From Escherichia phage HX01: a stretch of DNA of 64,000 bases. Of the stretch, positions 26,489 to 58,684 are shown in pieces. Where the stretch lies: sequence record NC_018855.1. One strand, written 5' to 3'. Below the pieces are notes generated by a model. The model was not told the origin of the DNA. It made no database searches and saw nothing but the letters and a program-made list of their open reading frames with translations. A program made the position numbers and the translations under genes. How positions within the stretch are numbered: the first letter of the stretch is position 1; each line of letters starts with the position of its first letter.

Positions 26489-27139
26489 ATGTATACTGTA
26501 TATAAAATAACTAACATCGTAAATAATAAAATTTATATAGGTGTTCATAAAACTAATAACCCGGATGATTCTTATAAAGGAACAGGTAAAATTATCTTAA
26601 AAGCCCATGCTAAATACGGATTAGATAATTTTGTAAAAGAAGTATTATATGTGTATGATACCGGTGACGAATTACTAAATGAAGAAATGGCTTTCCAAAA
26701 GGAAGCAGAATTAGTTGATCAATCTTTTGTGGATAGAGAAGATACATATAATATAGACCTAGGAGGAAAGGGAGGACGAGGCCGTTCTATTGATGTGCGA
26801 AAAAGAATAGGCGATTCATCCAGAGGTAGAAAATTAGGTCCTATTTCCGAAGAATCTAAAAAGAAAATGAGTTTAGCTAAGAAGGGTAAGAAATTATCCG
26901 AAGAGCATAAAGCTAAAATAGGTAAAGCAGGCCGAGGCAGGATAATGCCTAAAGAGATTAGAGACAAAATAAAAAATACTCTTACAGGACGAAATAGAAC
27001 TCCTGAAGAAAAGGAAAACATGAGATTAGGATACTTAAATACTCCTAATAAGATATGCCAATACTGCGGTATAGAATGTAAACCTGCGCCTTATAAACGT
27101 TGGCATGGTGATAATTGTAAAATGAGGAAAGTTGAATGA
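26489..27139 (+). mobile_element. GIY-YIG homing endonuclease (Seg-like)
   Basis: N-terminal GIY-YIG module (VYKITNIVNNKIYIGVH), NUMOD3-like lysine-rich repeats, C-terminal Cys/His cluster; inserted between genes 4 and 2. Confidence 0.8.
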
Positions 27140-30199: not shown

Positions 30200-30487
30200 A
30201 TGAAAACCTATAAAGAATTTATATCACCTGTTGCTAACGTTTCTACTCTGACTGAAGCAACCCTTACTTCCGAAGTTATTAAAGCAAACAAAGGCCGTGA
30301 GGGTAAACCAATGATTAGTCTAGCTGACGGCGAAGAAGTAAAAGGTACTGTTTACTTAGGAGACGGGTGGTCCGCTAAGAAAGATGGCGCTACTATTGTT
30401 ATCTCTCCGGCTGAAGAGACTGCACTGTTTAAAGCTAAGCACATTTCTGTAGCTCAGCTTAAAATTATTGCAAAAACTCTTCTGTAA
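30200..30487 (+). CDS. ipI: Internal protein I-like (capsid-targeted)
   Basis: 95 aa, N-terminal MKTYKEFI capsid-targeting-like sequence; position after 57B. Confidence 0.7.
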   Translation: MKTYKEFISPVANVSTLTEATLTSEVIKANKGREGKPMISLADGEEVKGTVYLGDGWSAKKDGATIVISPAEETALFKAKHISVAQLKIIAKTLL

Positions 30488-36110: not shown

Positions 36111-36451
36111 CCGTATGGCCTTCTCTTGGTGAGAACATTCTAATTTTTATTATGAGTATTGGCATGGGATTTGCCTTTGGATTAGTTGGATTTCTTATTG
36201 ACGGCGTTGTGTTAGGATTTATAGGGAACACTGGTGGATTCACAGACCAATGGCAGGACTTACGGTATACCCAAGCCTTTGCATCCATCGCATCATTTTG
36301 TACTGTAGTCTATTTTTACTACGATTTTATAAACCATAACAAGAAAAATAAAAAGGTTTACGCTTCTCAAATGATTAGTTATAATGAACTCCTAGCTAGA
36401 CGTGAAAATGAAACAATAGAAAACTTTATTAAGGAATGTAGAAATGAGTAA
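36089..36451 (+). CDS. Small membrane protein, C-terminal ENFIKECR motif family
   Basis: 120 aa, hydrophobic N-terminal half, ends ...ENFIKECRNE. Confidence 0.55.
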   Translation: MQKPQLLTVWPSLGENILIFIMSIGMGFAFGLVGFLIDGVVLGFIGNTGGFTDQWQDLRYTQAFASIASFCTVVYFYYDFINHNKKNKKVYASQMISYNELLARRENETIENFIKECRNE

Positions 36452-40080: not shown

Positions 40081-40313
40081 GTATAGCAATTTACATTAAA
40101 TCAGAATCATGTGATTCTTATCTGTATTCCTATGATACCGGAACGTCAGAAGAGAAAATCAAAGAAGATTTAGAAAGCGACTTGGATATGTTCCGACCTA
40201 TTTCTGATTATATGGTCCAAATATCTGATAGTGAAAGTCCGTCAACAGAAACATGTGTTGAAATTATTATACGAGATATCTTTAAACAATCATGGGACCG
40301 AGATGATGAGTAA
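40077..40313 (+). CDS. Small acidic hypothetical protein
   Basis: 78 aa from ATG 40077; overlaps nudE start. Confidence 0.45.
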   Translation: MSIAIYIKSESCDSYLYSYDTGTSEEKIKEDLESDLDMFRPISDYMVQISDSESPSTETCVEIIIRDIFKQSWDRDDE

Positions 40314-40761
40314 GAAAAATAAAGTGAAAGAACTATCAGCCGGTATTATTTTCCTTACCGAAGATAAAGAATTATTCATGGGGCGTGTAACTGGTTCTCG
40401 TCCTAAAGGTTCTTTAGCTCATCGGTGGGATATTCCTAAAGGTCGTGTCGAGCCCGGTGAATCTCCTATCGAAGCCGCTATTCGTGAATGCGAAGAAGAA
40501 ACTGGGTTTACACAATATGACCCTGCCTTCCTGAAAGACCTAGGTGAACATCATTACTCAGACAATAAGAATATTCACCTGTTCCTATATACCATCCCTG
40601 TAGAGCACGAGCAATTCAGAAATAGTGTTTGTAATTCCTATCATACATTCCCAGACGGACGTCAGATTCCTGAATTTGATGCATTCGCTTTAATTAAACC
40701 TTCTCAATGGGAATATGTAATGGGCAAATCATTATATAAGGTGCTCACTACCCTCCTATAA
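40303..40761 (+). CDS. nudE: Nudix hydrolase NudE (e.1)
   Basis: Nudix box GRVEPGESPIEAAIRECEEETG; immediately upstream of e as in T4. Confidence 0.8.
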   Translation: MMSKKNKVKELSAGIIFLTEDKELFMGRVTGSRPKGSLAHRWDIPKGRVEPGESPIEAAIRECEEETGFTQYDPAFLKDLGEHHYSDNKNIHLFLYTIPVEHEQFRNSVCNSYHTFPDGRQIPEFDAFALIKPSQWEYVMGKSLYKVLTTLL

Positions 40762-40795: not shown

Positions 40796-41284
40796 ATGAA
40801 TATATTTGAAATGCTTCGTAATGACGAAGGTCTTAGACTGACTTTATACAAAGACACTGAAGGCTTTTGGACGATTGGCATAGGCCATTTAGTAACAAAG
40901 AACCCATCTTTAGCCGTAGCTAAAGCTGAACTTGACAGAATGATCGGCCGTAAATGCAACGGTACAATTACCCTTGATGAGGCTGAAAAGCTATTTAATG
41001 AAGACGTTGATAAAGCCGTTCGCGGAATCTTGGGTAATGCTAAACTTAAACCGGTATACGATTCTTTAGATGCGGTTCGTCGTTGTGCATTGGTCAATAT
41101 GGTCTTCCAAATGGGTGTAGCAGGCGTCGCCGGTTTTACTAATTCTCTTCGTATGCTTCAACAGAAACGTTGGGACGAAGCGGCAGTAAATCTAGCCCAA
41201 TCTAAATGGTATCGTCAGACACCCAATCGCGCGAAACGCGTAATATCAACATTTAAAACAGGAACTTGGAAAGCGTATATATGA
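40796..41284 (+). CDS. e: Endolysin (T4 lysozyme) gpe
   Basis: [32 protein letters not shown]... very close to T4 lysozyme by recall. Confidence 0.92.
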
Positions 41285-41549
41285 AAACATATAGTGAATT
41301 TTTATCAGAATCTATTCTTAACGAAGCTACTGACACATTTGCAACTAAGTTAGGTGCAGCTTTGGTTGAAGCCGAAAGTCTATTAGCACGTATTTTAAGA
41401 TAGATACTCGCAAATTTGAACGTACCAGTGATATCGTTAAGCTTGAAGCCTTGTTGCGTATGTGTGATAAACCGGAAGAAATCGCTAAGAACGGCTCGCT
41501 GATGAAACAACGTCTTGAAAAATATATTTCAGGCGCTTCAGAAAAATAG
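41281..41549 (+). pseudogene. Internal-protein-like gene interrupted by a frameshift
   Basis: [10 protein letters not shown] capsid-targeting-like start, in-frame TAG at 41401 after 40 codons, coding continues in the -1 frame for 48 codons to 41549. Confidence 0.45.
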
Positions 41550-41550
41550 T

Positions 41551-41605
41551 GTTTACTTCCTCCAAGGGTTTTGATACTATACATTCATCAACTACTTGGA
41601 GGAAA
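41551..41605 (+). promoter_or_regulatory. T4-type early promoter with long stem-loop enclosing -10 and denV RBS
   Basis: GTTTAC, 18-nt spacer, TACTAT; 10-bp inverted repeat TTCCTCCAAG...CTTGGAGGAA whose 3' arm is the SD. Confidence 0.55.
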
Positions 41606-41607
41606 TT

Positions 41608-42021
41608 ATGACTCGTATCAATTTAACACTTGTTTCTGAACTGACCGACCAACATCTTATGGCTGAGTATCGTGAATTACCACGCGTATTTGGTGCAGTC
41701 CGTAAACATGTTCAAAACGGTAAACGTGTAAAGGATTTTAAAATCTCCCCGACATTTATCTTAGGCACAGGTCATGTAACATTCTTTTACGACAAACTCG
41801 AATTTTTACGTTTACGTCAAATCGAGCTAATCGCTGAATGCTTGAAACGTGGTTTCAAAATCAAGGACACGACTGTCCAAGATATTTCCGACATCCCTGC
41901 CGAATTTCGTAATAATTATGTCCCGACCGAAGCGTCCATTGCGATAAGTCAAGCTCGTTTAGATGAAAAAATTGCTCAACGTCCTACTTGGTACAAATAC
42001 TATGGTAAATCAATTTACTAA
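41608..42021 (+). CDS. denV: Endonuclease V (pyrimidine-dimer glycosylase) DenV
   Basis: [34 protein letters not shown]... matches T4 endo V by recall. Confidence 0.92.
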
Positions 42022-42052
42022 GGAAAAAGGTTGCGATGGTAAAGCTTAAACA

Positions 42053-42082
42053 GTTTACGCTTAAGTATTAATATGGTATAAT
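42053..42082 (+). promoter_or_regulatory. T4-type early promoter
   Basis: GTTTAC, 18-nt spacer, TATAAT. Confidence 0.55.
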
Positions 42083-42112
42083 TACTCTATCAAAACAAAC
42101 AAGGAAACAAAA

Positions 42113-42415
42113 ATGAAAACATATCAAGAATTTATTACTGAAGCGCGAGTGAGTGCAGGTAAATTAGAAGCCGCTATAAATAAAAAGGCCCATTCATTTC
42201 ACGATTTGTCCGATAAAGACCGTAAGAAACTTGTAAGCCTTTATATTGACAAAGAGCGTATTCTCGCTCTTCCTGGCGCTAATGAAGGTAAACAGGCCAA
42301 GCCTTTGAATGCTGTTGAAAAGAAAATTGATAACTTTGCTTCTAAATTCGGTATGTCTATGGATGACCTTCAGCAAGCGGCTATCGAAGCAGCTAAAGTA
42401 ATTAAAGGTAAATAA
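42113..42415 (+). CDS. ipII: Internal protein II-like (capsid-targeted)
   Basis: 100 aa starting MKTYQEFITEA (canonical capsid-targeting sequence). Confidence 0.65.
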   Translation: MKTYQEFITEARVSAGKLEAAINKKAHSFHDLSDKDRKKLVSLYIDKERILALPGANEGKQAKPLNAVEKKIDNFASKFGMSMDDLQQAAIEAAKVIKGK

Positions 42416-46738: not shown

Positions 46739-46920
46739 GTTTAAGTAAAGAACAAAAAGACAGACTCTTTTCTCTTATCCACGAAGTTATGGATAAAAAT
46801 AGCGAATTGGAAAAAGTTTGTAATGAATGCGGTCCTTTTAGCGCAAACGAGTACGAAGAACTTTCTAAAGAATTCGATAATAAAGAACAAGAACTCATTG
46901 ATTATATAAATTCCTTATGA
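46735..46920 (+). CDS. Small helical protein, MxxxEQK paralogue A
   Basis: 61 aa MSLSKEQKDRLFSL... Confidence 0.45.
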   Translation: MSLSKEQKDRLFSLIHEVMDKNSELEKVCNECGPFSANEYEELSKEFDNKEQELIDYINSL

Positions 46921-47114
46921 TTACTCGCGAACAAAAGAACGAAATATTATTTTTAGTTGGTGAAATTATTAGTTTAGAAAAGGATTTGTCTTTTGAATTA
47001 TCTTCTGATTATGGAGATGCCGAAACATATTACGAATTAGTAAAATCTATCGATAAAGCTGAAAATGATTTGGAAACATATTTAGAAAATTTAACTAAGG
47101 ACTCTTATGGCTAG
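46917..47114 (+). CDS. Small helical protein, paralogue B
   Basis: 65 aa MITREQKNEILFLV...; tandem to paralogue A. Confidence 0.45.
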   Translation: MITREQKNEILFLVGEIISLEKDLSFELSSDYGDAETYYELVKSIDKAENDLETYLENLTKDSYG

Positions 47115-50362: not shown

Positions 50363-51372
50363 TGAAAACAATTGTGAAAACTTATTTTGGTAGTCACCTT
50401 TATGGAACGTCTACTCCTGAATCTGACGTCGATTTTAAAGAAATTTACGTCCCTCATGCTCGTGATATCTTGACCGGTAACGTTAAAGAACATATGAGCA
50501 AGAACACGAATAACACGTCTTCTAAGAACACAAAAGACGACGTGGACCATGAGTTGTATAGTCTCAAATATTTCTTTAAACTAGCTGCAGATGGTGAAAC
50601 AGTCGCATTAGATATGCTTCACACTCCACCAAGTTTAGTAGTTAAATCTGATTTGCCTGACGTGTGGAAGTATATTCAAGACAACAGGTCTCGTTTCTAT
50701 ACTACTAACATGAAATCTTATTTAGGGTATGTCCGTAAGCAAGCTTCTAAATATGGCGTCAAGGGTTCTCGATTGGCCGCATTACGTGATGTATTGAAAG
50801 TAGTTAATCAAATCCCTGACCAGTGGGTTGATTACCAAGAGGGAATTCCAGATCGTTTACGCCGAACTAAGGTAGAAGATATCAAACACCGACTCCCTGA
50901 AAACGAGTTTTGTGAATGGGTATTCCATAATCATGAGAAAACCGGTCCACAAACGTTCTACACTGTGTTGGGTCGTAAATATCAGACAACACTTTCTCTT
51001 ATTGAGCTTAAGCAGTCTTTGAATAAACTTGATGCCGAATACGGTGAACGTGCTCGTAAGGCAGAAGCTAACGAAGGTATTGACTGGAAAGCATTGAGTC
51101 ATGCATGCCGTGGTGGACTTCAATTATTGGAAATTTACAAAACCGGCGACCTGGTTTACCCGCTTCAAGATGCTCCATTTATTCTCGATGTTAAGCTTGG
51201 TAAACATACGTTTAAAACTGTACAAGAATTCCTGGAAGATATTGTTGACCAGGTAGAACATGCGTCAGAACAAGCCGCTAAGAATGGTATGCAGCAAAAA
51301 GTAGATATGAGTTTCTGGGATGACTTCCTTGAACAAGTTTACTTAGAAAACCACAATTCGTACTATAAATGA
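50359..51372 (+). CDS. Nucleotidyltransferase-fold protein (pol-beta superfamily)
   Basis: N-terminal YFGSHLYGTSTPESDVDF = G[GS]x9-13DxD motif, downstream acidic DDVDHE; 337 aa. Confidence 0.6.
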   Translation: MMKTIVKTYFGSHLYGTSTPESDVDFKEIYVPHARDILTGNVKEHMSKNTNNTSSKNTKDDVDHELYSLKYFFKLAADGETVALDMLHTPPSLVVKSDLPDVWKYIQDNRSRFYTTNMKSYLGYVRKQASKYGVKGSRLAALRDVLKVVNQIPDQWVDYQEGIPDRLRRTKVEDIKHRLPENEFCEWVFHNHEKTGPQTFYTVLGRKYQTTLSLIELKQSLNKLDAEYGERARKAEANEGIDWKALSHACRGGLQLLEIYKTGDLVYPLQDAPFILDVKLGKHTFKTVQEFLEDIVDQVEHASEQAAKNGMQQKVDMSFWDDFLEQVYLENHNSYYK

Positions 51373-56541: not shown

Positions 56542-56855
56542 AAAAGCGTCTATTAGAAGATATTGCAGCTTCAAGTAATTCCAGTCTAATTAAAATTATT
56601 ATGGCTGGTGAAGAAGACGATTTAGAAATGCGCGGAAAGATTCATGGTTGTGACGATTTAGATTTTAAACCTCCGGCTTGGGATGCCATTATGGCTATGG
56701 TTAAACGTCGCGAAAGGGCTTCTAAAAACGTTCCTAATTGTCCTGAATGTGGTACTGAACAGGTTCAATTAGTTCATTGGCAGACTAGTAATCTTCGTTA
56801 TAAATGCCGTCATTGTAAACACCGATTTGACCGAGAAGAAAATGACAAAGCGTAA
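56538..56855 (+). CDS. Zn-ribbon hypothetical protein
   Basis: 105 aa with CPECG...CRHC four-Cys cluster. Confidence 0.5.
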
Positions 56856-57084
56856 AGAATATATGGAGACTGCTGAAAAGGCAGTCCGTGAATTAGCAAT
56901 AGCGTATTATAATGAACACGGTAAATTTCCTGATAGATACAGCGTGCTTAAATCTGCTTTAACTCGTTCATATAAAAATATGCTATCAGAAGTAAGTGAT
57001 ATTATATACAAACATAAAGAACAAACAGGTCAAAGTCTTGATTACGACGAGACTTTTAAACAAGTACTAGGAATTAAGGAATAA
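56842..57084 (+). CDS. Hypothetical protein
   Basis: 80 aa from ATG 56842; start uncertain. Confidence 0.45.
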
Positions 57085-57085
57085 T

Positions 57086-57349
57086 ATGTTTAAAGTATAT
57101 GGTTATGATAGCAGCATCCATAAATGTGTGTATTGCGATAATGCAAAACGTCTTTTGACCGTAAAGAAACAGCCGTTTGAATTTATCAACATTATGCCGA
57201 AAAAAGGTGTTTTTGATGATGAGAAAATTGCTGAGCTTCTGACTAAACTAGGTCGTGATACTCAAATTGGACTGACGATGCCACAAGTATTTGCTCCTGA
57301 TGGAAGTCATATTGGTGGATTTGACCAATTGCGGGAATACTTTAAATGA
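57086..57349 (+). CDS. nrdC: Thioredoxin/glutaredoxin NrdC
   Basis: MFKVYGYDSSIHKCVYCDNAKRLL... 87 aa, matches T4 NrdC by recall. Confidence 0.9.
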   Translation: MFKVYGYDSSIHKCVYCDNAKRLLTVKKQPFEFINIMPKKGVFDDEKIAELLTKLGRDTQIGLTMPQVFAPDGSHIGGFDQLREYFK

Positions 57350-57561
57350 TGCTTGAAGGAACTGATTATATCCATGACTACCGCGGAAGCGCGGTATATG
57401 TAGGTGATGAAGTCGCAGTTTATTATGGGTATGGAACTTTGATGACAGCAAAGGTTATTCAAATTAAAAATAATCATGCTAAACTCGAAGTTTATTATTC
57501 TAACGGTGAAAAGTCTATTTCTAAATGGAAATACGGCGATTGTATGGTCAAACTGGGGTAA
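57346..57561 (+). CDS. Hypothetical protein
   Basis: 71 aa, ATGA overlap with nrdC stop. Confidence 0.45.
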   Translation: MMLEGTDYIHDYRGSAVYVGDEVAVYYGYGTLMTAKVIQIKNNHAKLEVYYSNGEKSISKWKYGDCMVKLG

Positions 57562-57563
57562 AT

Positions 57564-57734
57564 ATGATTTACGATATTAGTGTATCAAGAACTCCGTCAA
57601 TGGTTACTATTCCTGCTGAAGAATTAGATCGTCTTCAGAAAATTGAAGAGCTTCTTTGGGAAATTGAATCTGATTTGCCATCAGGATTAGAATCCTGGAT
57701 TGATTATGAAGAACTTAATAAATTGCGAAATTAA
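57564..57734 (+). CDS. Small acidic hypothetical protein
   Basis: 56 aa from ATG 57564. Confidence 0.4.
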   Translation: MIYDISVSRTPSMVTIPAEELDRLQKIEELLWEIESDLPSGLESWIDYEELNKLRN

Positions 57735-57744
57735 GTGGTGACAA

Positions 57745-58065
57745 ATGACTATTGAAAATAAATTAGATGTTGATGCAGTTCTGAGTGAAATCATCGAAGA
57801 CCATGACGCATTTTCAGAAAATTATGATTTCGATTTTTCGGATTATCTTAAACCTGTCGAAATAGAAGATTGGGTACAAGATGGCAAATGCCAATATCGG
57901 CAGTGCGTTTATTTTAGTCCAAAACATAACGTTCATGTGTCTGTAAATGAATCTCGCTCAGGTTCTTACCATTCTGACTGGTATTATGCAGTTCCGACTG
58001 TTGAACTAGTTGAGCCTCGTGAACGTGTAGTAACTCAGACAATACGAGAATGGATTACGCTATAA
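57745..58065 (+). CDS. Hypothetical protein
   Basis: 106 aa ORF. Confidence 0.5.
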   Translation: MTIENKLDVDAVLSEIIEDHDAFSENYDFDFSDYLKPVEIEDWVQDGKCQYRQCVYFSPKHNVHVSVNESRSGSYHSDWYYAVPTVELVEPRERVVTQTIREWITL

Positions 58066-58188
58066 AACCTTGGTGGGCGGCTAGATGGGAAACAGTAGAG
58101 CCAGAGCCGGAAGAACCGGTTTACACTGATGAAGAAACAGTATATAATGAACCAACGATAAATGACTTAATTGATATGGAGATGGGAT

Positions 58189-58635
58189 ATGATTGCAGTA
58201 GATAAGTGGTTTAGAATTAATCGTGCTGATAAAGGGCTGTGTAATTACTGGCCGGAACTTAGTGCAGGTACTGTCTTTAAAGTTCGTGAACTCGCAAAAG
58301 AATGCGAAGATGATATAGAACCTGATATTGGAATTATTGAAATTGAACTTTCTGATGGAAAGATTATTAACATCTATGATAAGCCAATTACGTATTGGTG
58401 CTTGTGGAATACTGAATCCGCAGAAAATGGCGAGATTGAAGAAGTTGTAGAACGAGTTGATCAAGCTATTCATAAACCTAAAGCTGGATTTCAGGGTGAA
58501 CGTATTTCATATGCATTATCTAAATCGGCGTTGAAAAAAGATATTGATGATTACGAAGGAAATTTGATGCAAGCTGCGGCAGAATATATTGAATGGCTTG
58601 AAACTCAAATTTCTTTTTCTGACCGAGCGTTTTAA
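58189..58635 (+). CDS. Hypothetical protein
   Basis: 148 aa from ATG 58189 (RBS GGAGATGGG); ORF-track start 58171 is TTG. Confidence 0.5.
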   Translation: MIAVDKWFRINRADKGLCNYWPELSAGTVFKVRELAKECEDDIEPDIGIIEIELSDGKIINIYDKPITYWCLWNTESAENGEIEEVVERVDQAIHKPKAGFQGERISYALSKSALKKDIDDYEGNLMQAAAEYIEWLETQISFSDRAF

Positions 58636-58684
58636 TACTTGAAAATAATAAATACCTTTATCTATTCAAGGTAAGGGTTTTATT

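Follow-up and report, generated by a model that had tools for sequence, protein, structure and literature searches.

We analysed a window of 64,000 nucleotides from Escherichia phage HX01 (sequence record NC_018855.1). A megablast search placed the window in the genus Mosigvirus, the RB69/JS09-like T-even phages; the best genomes are ~96-98% identical to it and none is identical. The subject of this section is a split, ip5-like open reading frame (ORF) at 41281-41549, which like its neighbours and the IPI-type gene described below lies on the + strand and is located between genes e and denV. Directly upstream we find gene e, which encodes a T4-type lysozyme (40796-41284; called lysozyme or glycoside hydrolase in relatives), and further upstream the Nudix hydrolase gene nudE (40231-40761). 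Directly downstream follows an intact denV, encoding endonuclease V (41608-42021), and then an intact ipII-type internal protein gene (42113-42415) with the N-terminus MKTYQEFITE, which matches PHROG 7857 with E = 4.5e-55 and represents the second internal protein (IP) gene of the e-denV-ipII locus. The other IP locus holds an intact IPI-type gene at 30200-30487 (PF11634 IPI_T4, E = 1.1e-49; PHROG 4363). Comparison of the gene contexts showed that the ip5-like gene sits beside ipII in one of the two polymorphic T-even IP loci. Gene e ends and the ip5-like gene begins within the same four bases, ATGA (41281-41284), where the stop and start codons overlap. This overlap is kept in all aligned relatives and suggests translational coupling of the two genes. 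Two antisense ORFs (41253-41510 and 41345-41584) were rejected as spurious, as they are without support and the gene opposite them is under purifying selection.

Direct translation showed that the ATG at 41281 starts an ORF of 40 codons, which is ended by a TAG at 41401-41403. In the +2 (equivalently -1) frame the last upstream stop is found at 41367-41369, after which the frame remains open through KIDTRKFERTSDIVKLEALLRMCDKPEEIAKNGSLMKQRLEKYISGASEK to a TAG at 41547-41549. The initial annotation had described the same layout, with 40 codons up to the TAG at 41401 and a further 48 codons in the -1 frame, and our translation confirmed both its coordinates and its counts. It had attributed the break to a single-nucleotide indel near 41395-41403, the repair of which would restore a protein of 88 aa. 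The alignments do not agree with either of these two points. Against SF, ZQ3, ECCR664, Shf125875 and mogra, 13 bp (CTGAACTTGCTAG) are missing between 41395 and 41396 in one clean gap, and the flanks on both sides are almost identical to these five intact relatives. The same gap is present against JS09 and against BYEP02. The intact gene in the relatives has 282 nt and a product of 93 aa, and both halves of the window copy align with it base for base. It was thus the alignment to internal protein genes of related phages, a check that had been proposed together with the first description, which located the 13-bp gap.

The 5' part of the gene (41281-41403) contains codons 1-38 in their native form, including the capsid targeting sequence, followed by two out-of-frame codons (L, R) and the premature TAG. 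The deletion at the junction 41395-41396 falls inside codons 39-43, and the 13 lost bases encode part of an R-I-x-E-L-A motif that is invariant in the alignment between the Mosigvirus proteins and Ip5 of T2. The 3' part (41397-41549) is out of frame and comprises codons 44-93 of the intact protein (KIDTRKF...GASEK) together with the native TAG. Inspection of the junction revealed no microhomology or repeat at either endpoint of the deletion. A slipped-strand origin was therefore rejected and the mutational mechanism is left unexplained. We also considered a C-terminal fragment produced by reinitiation. There is no Shine-Dalgarno sequence before the in-frame starts of frame 2 (TTG 41451, TTG 41454 and ATG 41460) and such a fragment would be without the targeting peptide as well, which makes it unlikely.

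The reconstructed intact protein matched PHROG 3499, "internal head protein", with E = 1.2e-46, and the 40-aa stub alone still reached E = 3.8e-17. As both halves match one intact 282-nt gene and the stub by itself matches PHROG 3499, the two frames are not a chance pair of ORFs. Ip5 of T2 matches PHROG 3499 too (E = 1.8e-47) and is ~49% identical to the intact protein. A Pfam search found no domain in the intact protein, PF11634 IPI_T4 included. Using tblastn we detected homologues in 495 phage records. They form two groups, one 88-100% identical and the other ~48-51% identical, the latter including ip5 of T2, PP01, wV7 and fHoEco02. SF, ZQ3, ECCR664, Shf125875, mogra and JS09 each have a single intact gene of 282 nt between e and denV, and in these relatives it is annotated as "internal head protein" or as "similar to RB69ORF127c". 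The N-terminus encoded by 41281-41310 has the form of a T4-type capsid targeting sequence, with Y4, F7, L8 and E10; it is of the same type as MKTYQEFIAE of T4 IPII and IPIII. For T4 IPIII the first 10 residues are enough for head targeting (PMC9026906); positions 4 and 7 are of importance for the targeting itself, and positions 8 and 10 for the processing. The profile match and the similarity to T2 Ip5, the targeting sequence and the position in an IP locus all assign the gene to the Ip5 family. Its reading frame is broken, and the window copy is thus a disrupted allele and not a functional member. A frameshifted internal protein gene with a capsid-targeting-type N-terminus was also what the initial annotation had proposed, and this is borne out by the translation, the alignment and the PHROG 3499 match.

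We compared the gene with its known counterparts. These include RB69 ORF127c and its Mosigvirus orthologues (JS09_055, SF gp075 and Shf125875 gp121), for which we observed the same gene order with the gene between e and denV, and 96-99% nucleotide identity to the window copy outside the deletion. They differ in being intact 282-nt genes, whereas the window lacks 13 bp and encodes a stub of 40 aa. Ip5 of T2 and of related Tequatroviruses (PP01, wV7) shares PHROG 3499 and ~49% identity over the whole length. T2 Ip5 also has an MKT(Y/F).EF N-terminus, a similar size (84 versus 93 aa) and the invariant motifs KLG.AL.EAE, RI.ELA and EIAKNGS.MK.RLE in common with the intact protein. However, the T2 gene is located between 57B and the tRNA region, while the window gene lies between e and denV and is frameshifted and truncated. 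Homologous ip5 cassettes are accordingly found at different IP loci (1501-1755 of the T2 piece, 57B-tRNA, and 41281-41549 of the window, e-denV), which would fit an exchange of IP genes from one locus to the other. Extra IP genes were reportedly named by Repoila et al. in 1994. The T4 internal proteins resemble the ip5-like gene in the type of capsid targeting sequence, the polymorphic IP loci, the small size and the dispensability (PMC9026906, PMC12373910), but they show no detectable sequence similarity to the Ip5-like protein beyond the targeting peptide. An AlphaFold model based on a 5-sequence alignment is all-helical, with helices at 4-44, 53-64 and 69-91. With a pLDDT of 71.7 and a pTM of 0.35 its confidence is low, and only the secondary structure can be trusted.

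Several further characteristics of the neighbourhood were observed. At 41548-41613 we found an inverted repeat with the core TTCCTCCAAG/CTTGGAGGAA and arms at 41548-41566 and 41595-41613, which has a folding energy of -19.8 kcal/mol (z = -2.86). The fold buries the Shine-Dalgarno sequence GGAGG of denV and extends to its ATG at 41608. By eye we identified a T4-early-like promoter in the 5' arm and the loop, consisting of GTTTAC (41551-41556), TG (41572-41573) and TACTAT (41575-41580); a scan with a promoter consensus did not flag the candidate at 41551-41580. Transcripts starting at this candidate promoter would not contain the 5' arm, so that the ribosome site of denV would be accessible, whereas in read-through transcripts the site would be masked. 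The layout resembles the arrangement known from gene e of T4. The denV gene is intact and probably has expression signals of its own. The interval between denV and ipII (42022-42112 in the window, compared with L004 2842-3102, L005 2848-3744, and L008 24313-24801 and 25179-25316) is a polymorphic site for IP cassettes: it is empty in the window, SF and ZQ3, it holds one extra IP gene in Shf125875 and two, including ipIII, in mogra. In JS09 the interval contains a remnant of ORF125c and Ip10, and a short duplicated fragment of denV, absent from the window, lies downstream of ipII.

The intact alleles of the ip5-like gene showed a dN/dS of 0-0.14. Some pairs of intact alleles have as many as 16 synonymous differences without a single nonsynonymous one, and the most distant pair has ~26 synonymous versus 14 nonsynonymous differences. 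These rates indicate strong purifying selection, by which the intact gene is kept in nature. Only 4 sites separate the window copy from the nearest intact alleles, and its one private substitution, a C-to-T change at 41350, is synonymous (CTA to TTA). With a single private synonymous change the lesion is either very recent or not real, and the gene is not a pseudogene that has been decaying for a long time. The earlier reading as a decaying gene thus stands only if a gene that has just been inactivated is meant, and falls in the sense of an old decay.

The broken allele was found in the window only. We searched with an 80-nt query that had the junction at its middle and obtained hits in 170 phage records, each hit spanning 93 nt, so that the 13 bases are present in 170/170. 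Exact scans for the 29-mer at the junction showed that it is absent from IMG/VR, from metagenome contigs and from GTDB genome contigs, and the alleles were full-length in 6/6 IMG/VR contigs and 3/3 metagenome contigs. A large protein collection contained four full-length clusters of 93 aa and one entry of 59 aa. This "truncated" homologue (P0005) was rejected as a natural allele because its contig ends in vector-like sequence and represents a chimeric contig end.

A different disruption was encountered in Escherichia phage BYEP02 (OR757454), where the ip5-like gene (~801-1159 of the compared piece) is interrupted close to its 5' end by a tandem duplication of 77 bp. As for the window, the gene is disrupted in a deposited genome, in which two short ORFs annotated as hypothetical stand in its place. 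The lesion is different and independent, being a 77-bp tandem duplication rather than a 13-bp deletion; it may be a natural knockout that arose separately, or else the record OR757454 has an assembly problem. Altogether two lesions, in the window and in BYEP02, were seen among several hundred records with the gene.

All indels that distinguish the window from 49 kb of JS09 were catalogued, and 134 ORFs were compared in the two sequences. Over the ~47 kb compared, no annotated gene other than the ip5-like gene has an uncompensated frame-breaking indel. All other indels against JS09 are intergenic, lie in replaced segments or form compensating sets (-1/+1, -1/-2/+3 and -1/-5/-15), and a difference of 1 nt at 36441 alters only the overlap of two intact ORFs. 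The absence of any other uncompensated frameshift against JS09 implies that the assembly is not generally error-prone, and the comparison favours a genuine deletion over an artefact.

The comparison with JS09 also revealed differences in gene content. The segments 56565-58643, 46740-47099 and 50777-51024, around the nrdC/ORF091c region, align with JS09 poorly (~78-81% identity) or not at all, and appear to be replaced or divergent blocks of accessory genes. Between the head-completion gene 4 and gene 2, an ORF of 216 aa (26489-27139) is absent from JS09, where the alignment has a gap of ~680 bp. It matches NUMOD3 at the Pfam cutoff and has a SegE-type GIY-YIG match just below the cutoff, and from these matches it is probably the insertion of a seg-like homing endonuclease.

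Taking the results for the ip5-like gene together, the best explanation in our assessment is an ordinary, recent and strain-private knockout of this gene in an RB69-like phage, and we consider this reading probable. The lack of microhomology at the endpoints, the strong purifying selection on the intact gene, the weak structure model (pTM 0.35) and the missing Pfam domain are points against it.

The strongest competitor is that the deletion is an artefact of assembly or consensus calling, or a minority variant that became fixed in the consensus, with the phage population carrying the intact 282-nt gene. The uniqueness of the broken allele among about 180 sampled alleles speaks for this, as do the strong purifying selection on the intact gene and the fact that the rest of the window copy, with its one private synonymous change, is essentially identical to the intact relatives, as if the gene were unharmed. 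A recent genuine deletion likewise predicts the absence of secondary decay, however, and the loss of 13 bp in sequence that is neither repetitive nor homopolymeric (the longest run at the site is TTTT) is untypical of a sequencing error. There is also no second uncompensated frameshift in the annotated genes along ~47 kb against JS09. The initial annotation had named a sequencing error among its options; the JS09 comparison makes it less likely and we judge the artefact to be unlikely overall, while it keeps a small share of the probability.

A second alternative accepts the deletion as real and regards it as positively selected: the full-length Ip5 could be sensed by a host defence, or the phage could have escaped a sequence-specific nuclease (CRISPR or restriction). 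The ip5-like gene has been disrupted independently in BYEP02, the deletion takes out a conserved motif and does so without the microhomology expected of slippage, and internal proteins stand at the interface of the arms race between phage and host (PMC12373910). Direct evidence for selection is however absent: there are just two lesions among several hundred records, that of BYEP02 being perhaps an assembly problem, and the data are accounted for just as well by neutral loss while the phage was propagated on a permissive laboratory host. We therefore regard positive selection as improbable. A more specific version, in which an adaptive and genuine deletion would escape a defence triggered by the injected Ip5 or a nuclease targeting the site, while the 40-aa stub, with its targeting sequence, would continue to enter the heads in the form of a short peptide, is in our view even less probable.

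The weakest alternative is a recoding event, in which programmed ribosomal frameshifting, bypassing or transcriptional slippage would join both frames into a full-length protein, and to this we attach hardly any credence. The two frames do overlap by 34 nt (41370-41403), to which a rescue by a shift of frame would be confined, and there is a TTTT run at the junction; but we found no X_XXY_YYZ heptamer in any frame over 41360-41403, no homopolymer run >5 anywhere in the gene and only TTTT at the junction, and for the 86 nt that start at 41385 the folding energy is -14.4 kcal/mol compared to a shuffle mean of -15.2 (z = +0.31). Furthermore the two-frame layout occurs in 0/170 phage records, 0/6 IMG/VR contigs and 0/3 metagenome contigs, all of which have a single continuous frame. 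As the junction was created by a deletion that is absent from the relatives, a recoding signal at this site would be without evolutionary history, and in the fused product the invariant motif region would be five residues short. We also examined by eye a +4 hop between two AGA codons (41398-41400 and 41402-41404), which was rejected because it would land in a frame that stops at the TGA at 41417. Given the lack of a slippery heptamer, of downstream structure and of any relative with the split arrangement, the slippage site considered in the initial annotation is rejected.

For the preferred reading, a recent knockout, the course of events can be outlined by analogy with T4. The 10 N-terminal residues of an Ip5-family protein would direct it to the prohead core; the prohead protease would then trim it, and it would enter the host together with the DNA at injection. 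In the window the 13-bp deletion within codons 39-43 shifts the frame such that translation ends after 40 codons. The resulting stub keeps the targeting peptide and most of predicted helix 1, and the remainder of the protein, with predicted helices 2 and 3, is lost. The window copy is thus most likely a null allele. The lesion would be tolerated because internal proteins are expected to be dispensable on hosts without the matching defence; the IP genes of T4 are non-essential on standard hosts (PMC9026906). The second, independent break in BYEP02 fits the dispensability of the ip5-like gene.

With respect to function, T4 Ip1, Ip2 and Ip3 are inhibitors of GmrSD type IV restriction enzymes, each acting on a different one, and they are the only internal proteins with known targets (PMC12373910). 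By analogy we infer that the intact Ip5-like protein would be packaged and injected and might play an anti-restriction role. The protein itself has no homology to a characterised inhibitor and no Pfam match, and the likeness between Ip5 and IPII is limited to the targeting peptide, so that it was not classed as an injected GmrSD inhibitor. Our literature search returned no reported target for Ip5-type proteins and no report of RB69 ORF127c or Ip5 in the head. If the analogy holds, the loss of Ip5 would be free on a permissive propagation host but would narrow the host range on strains with the matching defence. The strong purifying selection on the intact gene implies that its loss should be costly in nature, and hence the broken allele may be confined to a laboratory stock.

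The lesion is nothing new in kind: it is an ordinary one in a dispensable accessory gene of a known family and is of little import beyond annotation. The correct annotation of the locus is a disrupted ip5-like internal head protein gene with a 13-bp deletion, and neither two hypothetical ORFs nor a recoding site. If the deletion is real, the phage represents a natural Ip5 knockout in which the IPI-type and IPII-type genes are intact, and a comparison of this knockout with near-identical intact phages such as ZQ3, ECCR664 or SF on wild E. coli could show whether a host defence is countered by Ip5-type proteins, and which one.
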